A DNA stretch of 47,773 nt from Candidatus Uhrbacteria bacterium (GTDB lineage: Bacteria > Patescibacteriota > Patescibacteriia > UBA9934 > GWF2-40-263). The translations under genes and the position numbers were made by a program. A model generated the notes under the pieces. That model worked only from the letters and a program-made list of their open reading frames with translations, did no database searches and was not told the DNA's origin. The stretch lies in the NCBI GenBank assembly GCA_016235605.1, contig JACRJW010000075.1:1-47773 (forward strand). The letters run 5' to 3'. Below are positions 41,668 to 47,773 of this stretch, piece by piece. Numbering within the stretch: the stretch's first letter is position 1; each line of letters opens with the position of its first letter.

Positions 41668-42570
41668 TTAGATGCTCAGAGCAATATGCTCGAGAGCTAA
41701 ATGAGGATTGATATTATGACGGGCCGCTTGGCGGGTTTCACAGAGGCGATTGAGAAAAGATACGAGAGGTGGACAGGTAGATGAGGTGGTGAGGAGAAGT
41801 TGACGGCGGGCGACGGTTTGGAGTTCTGTAATCACTTTCTGTAAACGAGAGGCACTGTTCACTTCACCTTTTGGAATGAACTCCATCACGAGACGCAGAC
41901 GCTCCGGCAAACTCGCGGCGAGAAATGCTTCTGCTTGCGCACGATCCGTTTCACGCACGGCTCGGTACGCACTATCTTTGAGGAACCGCAGAGCGAGTCC
42001 AGGCCGGCCTTCGCTGTGAAGCGCGGCTTCGTGTGCATCTGATTGACTGAACCCAGCGCAGATCAGTCCATCAACGATCGCCGTCTGCGCGACAACCGTG
42101 AAGCGCATCACCTGACAACGCGACGCAATGGTTGCAGGGACATCTTCAAGACTCGGCGCGCGCAGAATAAAAAGCGTCTGACCCTTGGGCTCCTCGAGCG
42201 TTTTCAAAAGCGCGTTCGCGCCGCCCATGGAGAGCTTGTGCGCTTCCTCGATGAAGATGACTTTGGTGTCGCCAGTAAACGATGTCATGGATAGTCGACC
42301 AACGAGATCACGCACCTGTCGCACCGAGATATTCGATTTGCGCTTGCCCGTCTTTTCATCATCGAGGCGCTTGAGCTCGAGATAGTCTGGCTGAGTCTCT
42401 AAATTTTGCACTCCCAGAACCTCACGACACAGAGCCTTTGCCACCATCGTCTTCCCGACGTGATCTGAACCGATAAAAAGCAGGGCATGAGGCAGGGATG
42501 TATGCGCGACCATCTTGCCAAGAACCTCTTTTGCCGGAGTGTGACCGATGATCGAAGAGAAGAGCTCCAT
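41668..42570 (-). CDS. holB: DNA polymerase III subunit delta' (HolB)
   Basis: AAA+ clamp-loader pattern HALLFIGSDHVGKT, IFIEEAHKLS, TLEEP; trimmed to ATG 42570 (MELFSS). Confidence 0.75.
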   Translation of the reverse strand: MELFSSIIGHTPAKEVLGKMVAHTSLPHALLFIGSDHVGKTMVAKALCREVLGVQNLETQPDYLELKRLDDEKTGKRKSNISVRQVRDLVGRLSMTSFTGDTKVIFIEEAHKLSMGGANALLKTLEEPKGQTLFILRAPSLEDVPATIASRCQVMRFTVVAQTAIVDGLICAGFSQSDAHEAALHSEGRPGLALRFLKDSAYRAVRETDRAQAEAFLAASLPERLRLVMEFIPKGEVNSASRLQKVITELQTVARRQLLLTTSSTCPPLVSFLNRLCETRQAARHNINPHLALEHIALSI

Positions 42571-42692
42571 ACGGACAATAGTATAGCACGCTGCCAAAAT
42601 GGCTCTGTGATGTCCAGCATAGTAAACAGATGTTTATCAGCTTATCTTAACTAATTTTAGATAAAATTCGGAAGCTTAGCTCCCGAAGAGTC

Positions 42693-42721
42693 TTGACAAA
42701 GTTGACAAAATATGATAGACT
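42693..42721 (+). promoter_or_regulatory. sigma70-like promoter of the accessory block
   Basis: TTGACA (42693-42698), 17-nt spacer, TAGACT (42716-42721); a GGAAGCTTAGCTCCCG box lies 7 bp upstream. Confidence 0.5.
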
Positions 42722-42758
42722 GCGCCCATACAAGATCACACAAAGCACCATACAAAAC

Positions 42759-42884
42759 AGAAACTTTTGAAAAAAGATGAGATGCGAAGTGCTGGAGGTG
42801 AGTAAAGGGCGAGGCGTAGGTAAATCCTACGGTGAGGTCTTTACGAACCGAAGCACGAGCAGATCGCTTTTTTCAAAAGTTTCT
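42759..42884 (+). ncRNA. 126-nt hairpin closed by a perfect 18-bp stem
   Basis: AGAAACTTTTGAAAAAAG/CTTTTTTCAAAAGTTTCT; inner helices GTAAAG/CTTTAC and CGTAGG-taaat-CCTACG. Confidence 0.55.
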
Positions 42885-42897
42885 AAACATTCTCTGG

Positions 42898-43418
42898 GGA
42901 GAGAGTACTAGGCCAAGTAAATGGCCATCAGGCAAAGGTGTTAGGTATTAGGTTATAGGTTGTAGCAAATAACTACATATCTACGATCTAAAGCCTAATA
43001 CCTAAAAGCCGGTTCCTGCATGTATCTCTCCTAACTCGATGCATTCAGCAACCGGTTTTTTGTCTGCCTACCACCTACAACCTAATACCTACTACCTGAT
43101 TTCTTCAGCCTCATGGAGGAGAGAGTACCCGTCCATCCAATGCTTCGGCAGAGGATGGCGGTGATCGCCAAATGGTCCGACTAGGCCTCGGCTTACTCGT
43201 TCCATATGCATGGCGATCACGAAGCATATTGTCCTTCGGGAGAATCACTGCTTCATCACTACCTCCAGTAGGTTGCAGGGATCATCCGATGCAGAAACTC
43301 GGAGGAGAGAGAAAAGGACCACCAAATGACTCGACTGGGTTTACTCACTCGATTCATACGCCCGGTGATCCTCGGCCTACACCAGCCCTCGGGCAGGTCA
43401 CTGGACCATTCTTCTCCG
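42898..43418 (+). ncRNA. three tandem GGAGAGAG-box structured units (unassigned RNA family)
   Basis: Unit 1 42898-43031, unit 2 43114-43267 (closing helix TGGAGG/CCTCCA around three hairpins, two capped by cUUCGg), unit 3 43300-43418; units 2 and 3 share collinear sequence blocks. Confidence 0.45.
43009..43062 (+). terminator. terminator-like hairpin plus T6 inside the leader (possible attenuator)
   Basis: CCGGTT..TGCAT..ATGCA..AACCGG followed by TTTTTTG; its loop contains the 3' strand (TATCTCTCC) of the unit-1 closing helix. Confidence 0.4.
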
Positions 43419-43489
43419 AATTCCTGTGTCGGACCAGAACCCACCGACCAGAACACCGGCAAGCCACAAACTTGCCAAAGGAAAATCAC

Positions 43490-43711
43490 ATGGATCATTC
43501 GATCCTCCTCCACCGTGCCCCGACTCCGTTCTTCTTCTGCACCGCCGACGAGGACCGCTTCCTGGCAACCGGCATCGCCAACTGCACCGGCACCGAGGTT
43601 CCCAGCGCGGCGCTTCGTCGCCGCTTCGGCGTCCCGGTCTACGTCGTCCCCCGCGGCACCAACCGCATCCCGCCCAGCGCCAACCAGGAGCTGGTGGCAG
43701 TCGCGAAGTGA
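43490..43711 (+). CDS. 73-aa hypothetical protein (first ORF of the GC-rich island)
   Basis: ATG 43490 preceded by AAGGAAA and by hairpin GGCAAG-ccacaaa-CTTGCC; GC3-rich from this point; the upstream part of ORF-track 43172..43711 is the structured leader. Confidence 0.45.
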   Translation: MDHSILLHRAPTPFFFCTADEDRFLATGIANCTGTEVPSAALRRRFGVPVYVVPRGTNRIPPSANQELVAVAK

Positions 43712-43788
43712 ACGGCTGACGCGACCGGGAACTCACGGTGAGGGTGTGCACAACACACTCTCACCGATCCCTCAAAGCACATCAGGAA

Positions 43789-43909
43789 CCTCTGCAAAAC
43801 TCGCGATCTTTGCTTTCACAGGCGCCCAGGCACCTCCTCAACGTACGTGTTTAGTACGTTTCGGAGGCTGCCAGCCCGTTCAAGCAAATCTCATCGAGTT
43901 TTGCAGAGG
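43789..43909. repeat. about 120-nt rod-like hairpin element, copy 2
   Basis: Closing stem CCTCTGCAAAACTCG/CGAGTTTTGCAGAGG; the interior differs from copy 1 at only 2 positions. Confidence 0.75.
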
Positions 43910-43950
43910 TTTGATCAATAACTGATGTCCTTCGAGGGATTACCAAACTC

Positions 43951-44133
43951 TATAGTCATCACACCATGAAAGAGGACTTTAGACGCCACGCCTGTAGATG
44001 GGATGCGCCGTCCTGGAGCGTGGAAAAACCGCAGAGGTATCCGTAGATACCTTGAGGATTTTTCCACGCGAAGGACAAGCAGACCGCCACGGGCGTGGAT
44101 GGATAAATCCTGTTTCATGGTGTGATGACTATA
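43951..44133. repeat. 183-nt rod-like element bounded by perfect 21-bp inverted repeats
   Basis: TATAGTCATCACACCATGAAA (43951-43971) and TTTCATGGTGTGATGACTATA (44113-44133); inner helices CCACGCC/GGCGTGG, GTCCT/AGGAC, CGTGGAAAAA/TTTTTCCACG, AGGTATC/GATACCT. Confidence 0.7.
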
Positions 44134-44269
44134 TTGACCTCCCAGTTCCTCTCGTCAAGGAATACATCTTCAAAAAACCCGGCCAGCTCAGCTGGCCATC
44201 TGGAGCGCTCGGGCTTGGCAGCCTGTGCACGACGAAACTCCAGAAAATTTCCTTAAGGAGGAAAACGCC

Positions 44270-44938
44270 ATGGGAACCAAAACACCAATCGTGATGCCCG
44301 ATCGCGCCGTTCCCCTGCCCGCGCCAGCCCGCAAGTCCAAGAAGCCCGCCAGCCCCCCGACCATCCACCAGGTCGCGGAGTCGGCCAAGCGCTTCTGCAA
44401 GGAGATGAGTCTCGGGGACGCGTTCGTGGCACCGCTCTTCGCCTTCGCGGTCAGTTCGGTCCATACGGCGCAGAGCCTTGTGCGCTTCGCGGTCGCGGCC
44501 GTCCGTGCCGAGCAGGGGCGCAGCAAGCTCCGCGGCGACCGCCACGAAATCGTGAATGCCTTCAAGGACTACCTCGAGAAGAACCGCCAGTACGACTTCA
44601 GGGCTCCCAAGCAGGAGCAGGAGGCTCGCAACCTTCTGCTGCGTGGGATCGAGCAGGGCGAGTTCCTTCGCCGCGGCCCCGCCGTGACCGAGGTGATCCT
44701 CGCGTGGACCATCCCGGCGTTCGACGCGGTGGAGGTGTCCGACTTCGCGCAGATCGATCTCCCCAACATGATCAGGGGGAACCTCCGTCTGGCGGAGTGG
44801 CTCCTCCAGAACGCGCTCAAGGACACGCCGGAGCAGAAGGCGCTCTCCGAGTTCACCGCGGCGTACGAGGCCGCCAAGGCGAAGGACGAGGAGTCCGAAG
44901 AGGACGCCGGGGACGAGGACGAACAGGCAGCGAGCTAG
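44270..44938 (+). CDS. 222-aa hypothetical protein with acidic C-terminal tail (island ORF2)
   Basis: AAGGAGG then 7-nt spacer then ATG 44270; very strong G/C at third positions; no family recognised. Confidence 0.65.
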   Translation: MGTKTPIVMPDRAVPLPAPARKSKKPASPPTIHQVAESAKRFCKEMSLGDAFVAPLFAFAVSSVHTAQSLVRFAVAAVRAEQGRSKLRGDRHEIVNAFKDYLEKNRQYDFRAPKQEQEARNLLLRGIEQGEFLRRGPAVTEVILAWTIPAFDAVEVSDFAQIDLPNMIRGNLRLAEWLLQNALKDTPEQKALSEFTAAYEAAKAKDEESEEDAGDEDEQAAS

Positions 44939-44962
44939 CCATGAACGGCTAGCGACCACACG

Positions 44963-45044
44963 GGGCGAGACGACTCTGTACGAGAGTCGTCTCGCCCAGC
45001 CCTAAGAGATCATGAGGCAAGCCTCGTGAACTGCTAGGGCTTCA
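44963..45044 (+). repeat. 82-nt double-hairpin 3' module, copy A
   Basis: 15-bp hairpin GGGCGAGACGACTCT-gtacg-AGAGTCGTCTCGCCC, then CCCTA..CATGAGG-caag-CCTCGTG..TAGGG. Confidence 0.75.
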
Positions 45045-45107
45045 ACCTTCTGCGCCTTGCCCAAGGCAACTGTTTTTTCCACCAATCACTACAACCAGGA
45101 GTCCCCA

Positions 45108-46259
45108 ATGCGCGAATTGACCTTCGCCGACAACGGCACCGTCGCCCCTGGCGACGAGAACGCTCCCGACCTCTGGGAGCTCGCCCTGGACAATCTCGAC
45201 ATCGAAGTCGAAACCCGCCCCTGGCGCGAGATGGACGAGTTCGAGGCCCCGGAGCAGATCTGGGACGAGACGAACGCGCTCGCGCAGGCCGAGGCGGAAG
45301 CCGAGGCCGACAAGTACAAGTTCGACGACGAGACTGACGAGATCGGCGAGGCGATCTACACCGGTGGCTACGACTACCACCGCCCCCGCGATCGCTTCGA
45401 CGATCAGGCCGACGAGCTCAAGATCCAGAACCACACGCTCGTGCGCAAGTACAGGTTCAAGGTGACGGATATCCTGGGAGTCAACGGACAGCTCCTCGGA
45501 GTCGACTACCTCGCTGTGGTGCTCGCCGCGTGCAAGGCGGCCGACGAGATCGCGGATCTCGCCGGCAACGGTGAGGTCTGCAGGGTCATCGCGCAGGCCA
45601 GCGGCTGGAAGGGCGAACTCCCCACGAGGCTCTCGGGCTTCGGGGTGGAAACGTTCTACCGCAGTGCGGGTGCCCTCCAGACCCGTGTCGCCGAGATCAA
45701 GGCCCGCAAGCCGAAGCACAGCGTCATCGTGATGCCCGACCGTCGCGTCGTAGAGCCCGTCCCCTCGCAGACCCCGAGCCGGTCGAAGGGCGCGCCGGTG
45801 ATCCTCGTGGTCCCGACGCAGAAGCCCGAGGGGAGCGACCTCTTCGGTCGGGTGAAAACCCCATCGGGTCTGGCGTTCCGGTGCGTGTGCGGCTGCGGCA
45901 ATCTCGTTCTCGAGAAAGTCGCCGTCGTACCGCCCACCAGTGCGATGCGCGACCGGCAGAACGGCGGCCGCGTGGGATCGAAAGATCTCTGGCGCCACGC
46001 GTTCGGCGAGCGGTGCATCCGTCGGTTCGGCCGCGGATTCTCCCTCAAGGAGAAGATGAACAAGATGATGGACGAAGAGTCCAAGCGCGAGGCCGCGAAC
46101 CGAACCCTGCGTCCGCGCTTCGGGGACGTCATCGGCCACGGTGGCGCCTTCGGCGGATCGGGCAAGGGCCCCACGCCGGGCCAACTCTCCCACCAGGCCG
46201 CACGGGCGGAGGCCGACCGCCAGCTGCGTCTCAAGATGCAGTCGGCGGGCAGGAAGTAG
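45108..46259 (+). CDS. 383-aa hypothetical protein: acidic N-region, CxCxC cluster, basic C-region (island ORF3)
   Basis: AGGAG then 6-nt spacer then ATG 45108; GC3-rich; shares an IVMPDRxV..P.P segment with ORF2. Confidence 0.65.
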   Translation: MRELTFADNGTVAPGDENAPDLWELALDNLDIEVETRPWREMDEFEAPEQIWDETNALAQAEAEAEADKYKFDDETDEIGEAIYTGGYDYHRPRDRFDDQADELKIQNHTLVRKYRFKVTDILGVNGQLLGVDYLAVVLAACKAADEIADLAGNGEVCRVIAQASGWKGELPTRLSGFGVETFYRSAGALQTRVAEIKARKPKHSVIVMPDRRVVEPVPSQTPSRSKGAPVILVVPTQKPEGSDLFGRVKTPSGLAFRCVCGCGNLVLEKVAVVPPTSAMRDRQNGGRVGSKDLWRHAFGERCIRRFGRGFSLKEKMNKMMDEESKREAANRTLRPRFGDVIGHGGAFGGSGKGPTPGQLSHQAARAEADRQLRLKMQSAGRK

Positions 46260-46301
46260 ATCCACGCGATCTACACGGCCAGCTCAACTGGCCACGGACG
46301 A

Positions 46302-46381
46302 GGGCGAGCGATTCTGTACGAGAATCGTTCGCCCGACCCTAAGAATCCATGAGGCACGCCTCGTGAACTGCTAGGGTTTCA
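46302..46381 (+). repeat. 82-nt double-hairpin 3' module, copy B
   Basis: GGGCGAGCGATTCT-gtacg-AGAATCGTTCGCCC, then CCCTA..CATGAGG-cacg-CCTCGTG..TAGGG; collinear with copy A. Confidence 0.75.
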
Positions 46382-46408
46382 TACCCAAACTCTCTCCCAA
46401 GGAGAAGC

Positions 46409-46447
46409 AAAAAACCGTCCTGAGTTTATCGAAGGGCGGTTTTTTGT
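46409..46447. terminator. bidirectional-type terminator closing the island
   Basis: AAAAA-ACCGTCC-13 nt-GGGCGGT-TTTTTTG. Confidence 0.55.
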
Positions 46448-46473
46448 TTGCCAATATCCTACAACACGACCGC

Positions 46474-46502
46474 TTGACGGACTCCCTGGGGGGTGTTAAT
46501 CT
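46474..46502 (+). promoter_or_regulatory. sigma70-like promoter
   Basis: TTGACG, 17-nt spacer, TAATCT. Confidence 0.45.
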
Positions 46503-46565
46503 GCTTTATCGTTTCTGTGGTGGAAACGTTTCATTGCCTAACCGGCAAGGAGTGAGGAGGATCTG

Positions 46566-46721
46566 ATGGAAAGGAAAAGAGAGAGTCCTTTCGACGCCAT
46601 CGCTTTGCTCCACGAGTACGCAACTCGCTGGGCTCTGCGACTTGTACAAGGTCGGCAACATCTCGTGGATGCAGATCCACGGAGGTTCCAACCAACCTAC
46701 ATTTGCGACGGCGGCGGCTGA
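46566..46721 (+). CDS. 51-aa hypothetical peptide
   Basis: GAGGAGG then 5-nt spacer then ATG; MERKRESPFDAIALLHEYATRWALRLVQGRQHLVDADPRRFQPTYICDGGG; own promoter and terminator; below the ORF-track cutoff. Confidence 0.4.
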   Translation: MERKRESPFDAIALLHEYATRWALRLVQGRQHLVDADPRRFQPTYICDGGG

Positions 46722-46776
46722 CGACCTTTCCCTCTTTTCTCTCCTGAATTCCTCACCACAGACCTGACCACGACGA

Positions 46777-46806
46777 ACGGATCGCACGCGATCCGTATTA
46801 TTTTTG
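46777..46806. terminator. hairpin plus T-run between the convergent small ORF and trmB
   Basis: ACGGATC-gcacgc-GATCCGT followed by ATTATTTTTGG. Confidence 0.5.
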
Positions 46807-47592
46807 GGTGGATTGCTTCACGGGATATTCTTGGGCGCCTCGCCAGGCAAGTTCAAACATCGCCCTGACGACTTCCGCGATCTCGTGGCTGATAATGACA
46901 CAAGCCAACACGGCCGACTTATAAGAAAAAAGAAACACATGATTTCCACGGACTGTGACTTCGCCGTGGATGGGAAACTCGCTCCGAGGGAGCATACGCA
47001 CTTGCCCAACTCCCATATTTTCGTTTTCCAGTTTGGATGGATCGTCAACCAAAATAAGTTTCCGGGCAGAGACACCTGCCTTTCCTTCTTGATGGCGCAG
47101 GCGTTGCATGTGCTCAAGACGGCCGTGGACAAATTCCTCGGTCGCCAGTACGTCTTCACGCGGATAAATCTGTATAAAATCTCCAGGAAGTTTTTCAAAA
47201 ATCTGCCGTACCGTCTCTATCCCTTCTGGCCCTTCCAAATATCGCACTTGCGGCTTGGCCCCTTCAGCGTTGTAGAGATTTGTCAGCAACGGCATCACCT
47301 TCCCAAGCTCGAGTTCTTTTTCTGCCAACTCCTTCTGCTTGACCTGAATGATCGACATCAACCGATCTGGGCTCTCGGAAACATAAAATCGTCTCTTGCC
47401 TTTTTGGAACGTGGACATGAGCCCACGACTGGCAAGTGATTCGATCATCACATAGGTCGTCGCACGGTTGACGTGGGCCTTGTGGGAAATGTCTTGCACG
47501 GGAGAGGGTCCAAGCTCAAGAGCGGCGAGATAGACCCGCGCCTCTTTGTCGGAGAGCCCCAAGTGTTCAAGTTCTTGTTTGAGTTCGTCCAT
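46798..47592 (-). CDS. TrmB-family transcriptional regulator
   Basis: Trimmed to ATG 47592 (MDELKQELEHLGLSDKEARVYLAALELGPSPVQDIS...), a winged-helix TrmB N-domain. Confidence 0.8.
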   Translation of the reverse strand: MDELKQELEHLGLSDKEARVYLAALELGPSPVQDISHKAHVNRATTYVMIESLASRGLMSTFQKGKRRFYVSESPDRLMSIIQVKQKELAEKELELGKVMPLLTNLYNAEGAKPQVRYLEGPEGIETVRQIFEKLPGDFIQIYPREDVLATEEFVHGRLEHMQRLRHQEGKAGVSARKLILVDDPSKLENENMGVGQVRMLPRSEFPIHGEVTVRGNHVFLFSYKSAVLACVIISHEIAEVVRAMFELAWRGAQEYPVKQSTQK

Positions 47593-47603
47593 AATGGCTG
47601 ACA

Positions 47604-47773
47604 CTACACCATGGCTCTCAAACTGTCCAGAGTCTGCGCCGCTGTGCGTTCCCAAGAGAAATCTTGGACGCGTTGTCTGCCTTTTTGGACAAGCTCAGCA
47701 CGCAGGCTTCCCTCTTTGACCACCCGCGAGAGCGCATGCGCCCAAGCTTCTGGTTCCCCAGGTGGCACCAAAA
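47604..47773 (-). CDS. C-terminal fragment of a glycosyltransferase (GT1-like), 5' end outside the window
   Basis: rc frame open from the window edge: ..LRAELVQKGRQRVQDFSWERTAAQTLDSLRAMV, stop at 47604-47606; the FSWE..A pattern is typical of GT1 C-termini. Confidence 0.45.
   Translation of the reverse strand, partial: LVPPGEPEAWAHALSRVVKEGSLRAELVQKGRQRVQDFSWERTAAQTLDSLRAMV

Follow-up and report, generated by a model that had tools for sequence, protein, structure and literature searches.

The window analysed here is a 47,773-nucleotide (nt) stretch of contig JACRJW010000075.1 from a Candidatus Uhrbacteria bacterium (assembly GCA_016235605.1), and our subject is a repeated double-hairpin module within an island of orphan open reading frames (ORFs) at positions 42693–46449. 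The island is a single promoter-to-terminator unit on the + strand, bordered by holB (41668–42597, − strand) and a TrmB-family regulator gene (46798–47655, − strand). The first-pass annotation of this DNA had placed one copy of the module after each large island ORF (copies A and B) and proposed that they form an RNA structure in the 3′ untranslated regions (UTRs). That placement stands and is extended by a third, divergent copy (C) at 43736–43940, downstream of the small 73-amino-acid (aa) ORF. ORFs and modules are listed below in transcript order; GC3 is the G+C content of third codon positions, and L001, L007 and similar handles denote loci of related genomes.

43490–43711, + strand: small island ORF, 73 aa, GC3 0.86; homolog in L001 (42% identity), tblastn matches in L007 and L013
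43736–43766, + strand: copy C hairpin 1, 13 bp, CGGTGAGGGTGTG / CACAA / CACACTCTCACCG
43767–43940, + strand: copy C hairpin 2, base (AT)CCCTC/GAGGG(AT), internal loop AAAGCA/TCCTTC, inner stem CATCAG/CTGATG
44270–44938, + strand: ORF1, 222 aa, GC3 0.88; homolog P0008 in L015 (39% identity)
44963–44997, + strand: copy A hairpin 1, GGGCGAGACGACTCT / loop GTACG / AGAGTCGTCTCGCCC, 15 bp without mismatch
44998–45041, + strand: copy A hairpin 2, base AGCCCTA/TAGGGCT, internal loop AGAGAT/AACTGC, inner stem CATGAGG/CCTCGTG with U.G, loop CAAG
45108–46259, + strand: ORF2, 383 aa, GC3 0.88; ratio of nonsynonymous to synonymous substitution (dN/dS) about 0.5–0.7
46302–46334, + strand: copy B hairpin 1, GGGCGAGCGATTCT / loop GTACG / AGAATCGTTCGCCC, 14 pairs, one of them G.U
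46335–46378, + strand: copy B hairpin 2, base GACCCTA/TAGGGTT, internal loop AGAATC/AACTGC, inner stem CATGAGG/CCTCGTG, loop CACG

Direct reading of 42000–47773 located copies A and B where the first-pass annotation had put them. Hairpin 1 has 15 perfect pairs in A and 14 pairs including one G.T in B; the C-G to T-A double change between them is present, and B is one pair shorter. As a comparison of A with B these differences hold as described, but they read differently against the family, where hairpin 1 in its most frequent form carries a single bulged base in the 3′ arm: relative to that form, copy A has an additional A that fills the bulge, and copy B has lost a C, leaving G.U. Hairpin 2 keeps its T.G wobble in both copies, and the loops differ (CAAG vs CACG) while the stem is kept, again as described. 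RNAfold returned the double hairpin as both the minimum-energy and the centroid structure for A (−58.3 kcal/mol, z −9.2, on the + strand; −53.0 kcal/mol on the − strand) and for B (−44.8 kcal/mol, z −6.0, and −43.4 kcal/mol, respectively), and covariance-model scores for the two copies were 91.1 and 89.2 bits. The match to copy C (43733–43941) scored 47.1 bits (E 4e-9); the apex of its hairpin 2 carries a 135-nt insertion, most of which is a 125-nt inverted repeat at 43787–43911.

A 29-nt core of the module, CATGAGGCANGCCTCGTGAACTGCTAGGG, occurs twice in the window with up to 3 mismatches allowed (expected 0.00). When copies A and B were aligned with 60–90 nt of context, similarity started sharply at GGGCGAG and stopped a few bases past TAGGG. 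Since the flanks cannot be aligned, the pair is not a segmental duplication, an origin that the first-pass annotation had raised as a counter-explanation; the sequences around A and B are unrelated. A protein-coding module was rejected on the 2-nt difference in length between A and B.

The comparison with other genomes covered ten Uhrbacteria-like Patescibacteria loci, all reached through ORF2 homologs and each with about 6–10 kb of flank; the hosts are uncultured groundwater bacteria. A covariance model built from six copies (R1) gave 18 sense-strand matches in seven genomes, and 27 after more distant loci were added. A second model (R2), built from the R1 matches including those at more distant loci, found 28 sense-strand copies in ten genomes at E ≤ 1e-4; the further copies that the first-pass annotation had suggested looking for do exist. 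All 28 lie on the ORF strand; − strand matches were to the same sites and scored roughly 20–65 bits lower. The copies follow orphan ORFs: every one of the 26 with an assignable upstream ORF comes after an island ORF stop codon, starting 3–196 nt past it. Both remaining copies belong to L012, a short contig: its end truncates one of them, and the other follows a deletion of the small ORF and of one arm of hairpin 1. Because the distance from module to next start codon is variable (10–417 nt, 26 copies), the constant relation is to the end of the upstream cistron. Complete islands carry 2–5 copies per operon, and L020 has five copies behind five different ORFs. Covariance-model searches detected no copies outside the island, either in the window or in the flanks of the ten loci.

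The module is not a plain terminator, as the first-pass annotation had argued, although its supporting statement that no T-run follows is literally untrue in the window. A weak hairpin, GCCTTGCCCAAGGC, followed by T6 lies at 45054–45079, 12 nt 3′ of copy A, and the operon terminator begins about 25 nt 3′ of copy B. What holds across the family is that no U-run is conserved in the 70 nt downstream of 26 copies. An intrinsic terminator was also rejected on the grounds that hairpin 1 leads into the linker and hairpin 2, and a terminator scan listed none at the modules.

Covariation is strong in both structure-guided and structure-blind alignments, and unusually clean. In the R1-guided alignment of 25 distinct copies, 96.1% of paired cells are canonical and 20 of 25 pairs show changes on both sides (96 cells); none of 500 shuffles reached the observed values, and 33–41% of cells paired when the register was slid. 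The R2-guided alignment of 28 distinct copies gave 95.9% canonical cells and both-side changes at 21 of 25 pairs, again with 0/500 shuffles and with 32–40% pairing in slid register. Alignments guided by a model lean toward its structure, and a structure-blind MAFFT alignment of 12 distinct copies therefore served as an independent check: 93.1% of cells were canonical, 11 of 21 pairs changed on both sides, no shuffle among 500 reached the observed value on four of five measures, and slid registers paired at 30–41%. In hairpin 1, all 13 pairs vary on both sides, and at least three sequence types occur, always as a stem of 9–20 bp. The outermost pair of hairpin 2 appears as G-C, A-U, U-A or G.U and the fifth as A-U, C-G or G-C, while inner-stem pairs alternate among G-C, C-G, A-U and U-A.

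The strand of the structure follows from its wobble pairs. An alignment of 18 copies contains 32 G.U cells and 8 A.C cells, so that pairing amounts to 95.8% when read on the + strand and to 89.9% on the − strand. These counts, together with the orientation of all copies in the sense of a single promoter, uphold the sense-strand argument first made from copies A and B. Hairpins maintained by compensatory change above the level of the controls are what is expected of a structured RNA under purifying selection. With copies, position, covariation and strand all in agreement, it is very probable that selection maintains the module as a sense-strand RNA structure within 3′ UTRs of island ORFs, as originally proposed.

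The two parts of the module differ in how their sequence is constrained. Hairpin 1 is a strong, G+C-rich stem of 9–20 bp with free sequence and a variable loop; one subtype, GGCGATCGA-CACGAAA-TCGATCGCC, is near-identical in several genomes. After a linker of 1–2 unpaired nt comes hairpin 2, which opens with a 6-bp base (N-CCCU-A / U-AGGG-N) and continues into a first 2x2 loop that is usually A.C plus G.G, with A-U, U-A, U.G or A.G also found. An AG/CU mini-helix follows (CU in 28/28 copies and AG in 27/28, the exception being copy B of the window), then a second 2x2 loop of free sequence and the inner stem CAUGA/UCGUG. At the third pair of this stem, 19 of 28 copies have U.G and two have G.A; the others form a Watson-Crick pair there. 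The apex tolerates 1–135 nt. Hairpin 2 is thus an irregular helix of about 19 base-pair steps, by estimate roughly two helical turns. The module as a whole is about 80 nt long, and its non-canonical positions are conserved.

Several known RNA motifs and array types were considered and rejected. By eye, there are no tandem G.A pairs adjoining a helix as in a K-turn, and a loop E or sarcin-ricin motif was likewise dismissed. An 11-nt GAAA-tetraloop receptor was rejected by eye because CCUAAG is present but its partner is CUAGG, not UAUGG, and the loops in the window are not GNRA. TIGR arrays do not fit, since copies are separated by ORFs of >1 kb and do not form a short-spacer array. At gathering threshold, Rfam 15 reported only 7 tRNAs in the window; at E ≤ 5, matches in the window's island were chance microRNA or small-RNA hits far below threshold, and the L001 and L020 islands gave nothing relevant at E ≤ 1.

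Short boxes resembling part of the module occur at the stop codons of the small ORF and ORF1, and the unit has a single promoter, a 3′ tail and a terminator:

42693–42721, + strand: sigma-70-like promoter, TTGACA, 17-nt spacer, TAGACT, extended −10 TG; 10/12 matches
43708–43719, + strand: GTGAACGGCTGA box, overlapping the small-ORF stop codon
44941–44952, + strand: ATGAACGGCTAG box, between the ORF1 stop codon and copy A
46379–46404, + strand: conserved 3′ tail TCATACCCAAACTCTCTCCCAAGGAG, after the last module here and in L007 and L012; variant in L020
46405–46449, + strand: island terminator, AAGCAAAAAACCGTCCT ... AGGGCGGTTTTTTGTTT; one strong terminator, with an equivalent visible in L007 and L012

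By reading, several genomes have boxes of the form (A/G)TGAACGGCTAG where the small ORF and ORF1 end, and these resemble the 3′ half of hairpin 2 (GAACTGCTAGGG). Written (A/G)UGAACGGCU(A/G)(G/A), the box is found at these stop codons or directly past them in most genomes, and it matches that 3′ half, GAACUGCUAGGG, at 10 of 12 bases. The box could also be read as a mini-ORF, M-N-G-stop. In relatives, an optional but conserved element of about 110 nt, made up of CUCACAGCCCNCCGU ... GGAAACCGAAAGGGUGAG followed by a hairpin and by A-rich sequence, may also stand between stop codon and module; we observed it at L001 5226–5330, L007 5449–5570 and 6975–7060, L009 3825–3985 and 6135–6225, L012 1465–1550, and L013 1371–1485 and 2984–3090, and it is absent from the three window copies.

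The promoter at 42693–42721 is the only promoter-like site of the island, and by eye the same sequence occupies the same place in L001, L007, L009 and L015. At the other end, the window shares with L001, L007, L009 and L012 the tail ACUCUCUCCCAAGGAG just 5′ of the terminator, and L015 and L020 have variants of it. The tail contains CTCTCTCC, which is complementary to GGAGAGAG boxes near the transcript 5′ end, three of which were observed (42896, 43116, 43302); long-range 5′–3′ pairing of the transcript of about 3.7 kb is therefore possible. A group I intron guide sequence was considered for GGAGAGAG/CUCUCU and rejected for want of an Rfam intron match.

Much of the untranslated RNA between promoter and first ORF also appears to be structured. 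The leader at 42885–43065 contains GGGGAGAGAGUAC, for which there are two alternative pairing partners: a UUCUCU further upstream, and AUCUCUCC, which is part of the apical loop of a hairpin (GCCGGUU...AACCGGUUUUUU) that resembles a terminator. This leader is conserved in L001, L007, L009 and L015, and from its sequence the region looks like an attenuator or riboswitch-type leader. It is followed by a conserved structured RNA of about 190 nt that starts with GGAGGAGAGAGUA (domain 2, about 43106–43290), in which 27 of 60 predicted pairs show compensatory changes across five genomes, and by domain 3 (about 43293–43470, 150–180 nt), just 5′ of the small ORF, with compensatory changes at 17 of 53 pairs in six genomes. 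Domain 3 looks related to domain 2, judging from a shared AAUGG..GACUNGG..UUACUC..CAUA, and in L001 and L009 it occupies another place, along with the small ORF. Neither domain matched Rfam.

Long near-perfect hairpins with arms of 17–45 nt lie at 42759–42884, 42936–43097, 43787–43911 and 43951–44133. Similar ones occur in L007 (7110–7195), L001 (7715–7790) and L009 (4075–4290) at comparable insertion places, several of low complexity; in the manner of expansion segments, they are unrelated in sequence from one genome to the next. Double-stranded RNA of such length is unusual inside a bacterial mRNA. The 5′ UTR of ORF1 (44134–44269; CCCAGUUCCUCUCGUCAAGGAA ... CUGGAG ... CUCCAGAAAAUUUCCUUAGGAGG) is nearly identical in L007 and L013, whereas the proteins encoded downstream are only about 20% identical, so that here the RNA is better conserved than the protein.

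The island sits in an ordinary chromosome. The rest of the window encodes mur ligases, FtsW, MurG, MraY, PyrG and TpiA, and it also holds genes for a class II tRNA synthetase, frr and holB, with 7 tRNAs; no recombinase was found among its approximately 36 ORFs. In at least ten related genomes the island lies between holB and the TrmB-family gene, and every contig with enough flank shares the neighbourhood glycyl-tRNA synthetase, frr, BNR-repeat protein, holB, island, TrmB, GT4 and mreB. Flanking proteins are 67–95% identical to those of the window in L001, L007 and L009 and 53–67% in L015; the corresponding values for island proteins are 42–63% and 29–38%. By these comparisons the island diverges along with the genome, only faster, and is not a recent insertion. 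A separate unit follows the island terminator at 46476–46721, where a promoter-like CTTGACG precedes a 51-aa ORF (46566–46721, + strand) that ends ...HLVDADPRRFQPTYICDGGG and is kept in L001, L009 and L012.

The three island ORFs have good Shine-Dalgarno sequences, and G+C contents of about 0.67/0.45/0.88 at their codon positions, a periodicity as expected of real coding sequence. Their GC3 of 0.86–0.88 compares with 0.42–0.67 in the other 33 window ORFs examined, and in L001, L015, L017 and L020 island ORFs reach 0.74–0.99 against 0.32–0.57 in the flanks, with one exception, a 63-aa ORF of L015 (0.62). First and second positions are only slightly raised in G+C, and the third-position bias holds whatever the genome's own G+C content. 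Since the excess is seen in all five genomes checked and the locus appears to be vertically inherited, it is a maintained property and not the trace of a recent transfer. Recent horizontal transfer of the island was accordingly rejected: it occupies the same site in ten genomes, its divergence tracks that of the flanks, and the anomaly is present in five of five. No link to phages emerged either, as ORF2 had no tblastn match in 50,697 phage records, the island gave one 51-nt chance blastn match in the same set, and the module pattern was not in IMG/VR contigs.

The island proteins resemble little else. ORF1, ORF2 and the small ORF had no usable match in Pfam, PHROGs, PADLOC or the sequences of the Protein Data Bank (PDB), and an exact look-up of the ORF2 sequence returned no record. 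A k-mer-indexed search found 8 proteins related to ORF2, and of 1.84 billion representative proteins 29 clusters belong to its family; an AlphaFold2 (AF2) model made from a 6-sequence alignment had a mean predicted local distance difference test (pLDDT) score of 52, too poor to use. ORF1 aligns collinearly at about 20% identity with a 214-aa island protein of L001, L007, L009 and L013, and from this alignment the two are probably distantly related. Within this group of loci the closest relative of the window's ORF1 is the protein of the most distant genome (L015, 39%), nearer genomes carrying the collinear form. ORF1-type proteins have at their N-terminus a peptide motif, IVMPDR (LVLPAR or LPTR in relatives), that ORF2-type proteins carry mid-sequence; the corresponding DNA sites in the window, 44288–44304 and 45726–45742, are identical at 16 of 17 positions.

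Gene order and content vary among the islands. The window, L007 and L013 have the order small ORF, ORF1, ORF2, while L001 and L009 have ORF1, small ORF, ORF2 and an extra small ORF of 42–70 aa (hydrophobic in L001); L015 has ORF2, ORF1 and two more ORFs, and L020 has eight ORFs. L012 has lost the small ORF together with the 5′ arm of hairpin 1 (220–300), so that domain 3 runs straight into ...CGTCTCGCCC and hairpin 2; an in-frame TAG also interrupts the N-terminal part of ORF2 (360–420). L012 is a case of decay or rearrangement at a module.

What might such an element do? Most likely it acts in cis as a structured part of the sense-strand RNA, and each cistron of a single, heavily structured polycistronic transcript is followed by one copy. 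The first-pass annotation had listed a processing or stability element, a protein-binding site and a cassette boundary as possible roles; sequence analysis does not separate the three, and a cassette boundary at the DNA level is the least supported. We tentatively favour a processing or stability signal at cistron ends, by analogy with known systems. The module would define and protect the 3′ ends of cistrons, with hairpin 2 serving as the recognition site for an RNase III-type, double-strand-specific endonuclease or another protein. Cutting in or near the internal loops of hairpin 2 would leave hairpin 1 and the remainder of hairpin 2 on the upstream cistron as a barrier to 3′-to-5′ exonucleases, and each cistron would gain its own stable end and its own lifetime, as at the early RNase III signals of phage T7. 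In T7, E. coli RNase III cuts five signals in an early precursor of about 7000 nt, and single-strand cleavage at such signals leaves a 3′ hairpin that stabilises the upstream message (PMC3867540).

The likeness to the T7 signals lies in repeated, related, irregular hairpins with conserved internal loops, placed between the cistrons of one transcript. The estimated two helical turns of hairpin 2 suit that format, and the resemblance would be one of working and not of homology. There is no sequence similarity, the module has an extra perfect hairpin ahead of the irregular one, and it is chromosomal in Patescibacteria, not phage-borne. A processing role is suggested by the form and position of hairpin 2, and the stability theme by the observation that the untranslated stretches folded so far mostly form long hairpins or conserved domains; codons that hardly ever end in A or U, together with folded untranslated RNA, are as expected of a nuclease-resistant RNA. 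Intercistronic stabiliser hairpins such as those of Rhodobacter puf and E. coli malEFG, which are single and idiosyncratic and set segmental mRNA stability, are likewise stem-loops after a cistron; the module differs from them in being two-part, in its conserved non-canonical positions, in its 2–5 copies per operon and in its clade-wide occurrence.

Several points weigh against a processing or stability role. The mechanism is proposed from shape and position, and the 47.7-kb window contains no RNase III gene. The conserved AG/CU, A.C, G.G and U.G positions and the near-identical hairpin 1 subtype suit a sequence-specific protein site at least equally well. Four copies lie 10–16 nt before the next start codon, where an effect on downstream translation is possible. 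Finally, as the loci were all found through ORF2 homologs, co-occurrence of module and island is partly a matter of ascertainment.

The main rival, a real but more doubtful possibility, is that the module is bound by an island protein, whether ORF2, ORF1 or the product of the small ORF, which would recognise hairpin 2 in autoregulation, ribonucleoprotein assembly or transcript packaging. Near-invariant non-canonical features in hairpin 2 and a conserved hairpin 1 subtype are typical of protein operators, the module is known only alongside the ORF2-family island, and fast-evolving island proteins coexist with conserved RNA elements. By its sequence, ORF2 could bind nucleic acid through a conserved cluster of Cys residues (CxCGC ... 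C) and a basic C-terminus rich in Gly, but no RNA-binding domain was detected in any island protein, the AF2 model (pLDDT 52) being unusable; the co-occurrence is biased by the way the loci were found, and simple autoregulation needs no site after every cistron. A related but distinctly unlikely reading makes the module a repeated signal for recognition or packaging within an RNA-protein system complete in itself, with a transcript built for extreme stability, to which third codon positions nearly free of A and U in each lineage, the folded UTRs, the two 5′ domains and the complementarity of 5′ GGAGAGAG to 3′ CUCUCUCC would all belong. On that reading the fast-evolving island proteins would bind the double hairpins; the result could be a particle, or an mRNA meant to persist or to work elsewhere than in the producer's ordinary translation, for example in a host cell, the bacteria being presumably episymbiotic. 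A small self-cleaving ribozyme cutting between cistrons would suit the intercistronic position and the highly conserved internal-loop nucleotides of hairpin 2. It is nevertheless very unlikely, as no Rfam ribozyme matched even at E ≤ 5 (the permissive scans, assumed to include hammerhead, twister, twister-sister, pistol, hatchet, hairpin and HDV-like families, matched none of them), hairpin 1 is a simple helix capped by a loop that varies, an active site would have neither a conserved pseudoknot nor a second loop to be built from, and apex and linker vary freely.

The remaining alternatives place the function in transcription or in DNA. The put RNA of phage HK022 consists of two stem-loops, is promoter-proximal and upstream of terminators, and acts in cis on the nascent transcript. 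The module shares with it two stem-loops joined by one or two unpaired nt, and a put-like modification of RNA polymerase (processive antitermination or pausing) with read-through to the next cistron would find targets in the terminator-like leader hairpin and the weak hairpin with T6 after copy A. We regard this as unlikely: the modules follow each ORF and are not promoter-proximal, terminator-like sites after them are not conserved, the last module stands about 25 nt before the final terminator of the operon, where antitermination would be pointless, and there is neither sequence similarity to put nor an Rfam family match. Equally improbable is a DNA-level recombination site at gene-cassette boundaries, an attC-like folded single strand or cruciform. 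Like integron attC sites, the modules form a structured site at the 3′ end of each promoterless ORF, in one shared orientation behind a single promoter, gene order and content vary between genomes with modules at the boundaries, and the L012 deletion ends inside hairpin 1. However, no integrase, transposase or HUH gene was found among the approximately 36 window ORFs or in the gene tables of the ten loci; copies start with GGGCGAG and end with CTGCTAGGG(C/T)TT, with no GTTRRRY/RYYYAAC core visible by eye, no pattern search having been run; there are two hairpins and not one imperfect one; the wobble pattern and G.U excess favour RNA; and island divergence tracks the flanks, as in vertical descent. 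Homologous recombination between 80-nt repeats would give rearrangements anyway. A neutral repeat, whether a recent duplication or an element of the MITE (miniature inverted-repeat transposable element) or REP (repetitive extragenic palindromic) type with unselected structure, would likewise be palindromic, repeated and intergenic, but it is extremely improbable given the unrelated flanks of A and B, the confinement of copies to the island, and their corresponding positions after the same ORF types, with compensatory changes, in genomes whose flanking proteins are 53–95% identical. REP sequences and bacterial interspersed mosaic elements (BIMEs), like the Correia elements of Neisseria, are palindromic intergenic repeats that stabilise mRNAs or are processed in them; they are mobile and present in tens to hundreds of copies. 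The module resembles them as a transcribed palindrome after ORFs and a possible 3′ stabiliser or RNase III target, and differs in being confined to one operon at corresponding positions across genomes; membership in a dispersed REP/BIME/MITE-type family was rejected on that confinement, as seen over the window and the flanks of the ten loci.

The module is thus of a familiar general kind, a cis-acting intercistronic or 3′-UTR structure. What is unusual is its two-part design and its repetition after every cistron of a strange operon in a narrow clade of Patescibacteria; its known distribution is small (ten genomes), and our literature search found no description of this motif or of a comparable RNA element in Patescibacteria or Uhrbacteria. 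If the processing or stability role is correct, these reduced genomes would use a T7-like segmentation of polycistronic RNA, and a specific RNA site would provide a handle for finding the responsible nuclease or binding protein. The operon is odd in itself, combining orphan, fast-evolving proteins and extreme GC3 with two covarying RNA domains and an attenuator-like leader, and the module may offer the most accessible starting point for work on an RNA-centred system that is still uncharacterised.

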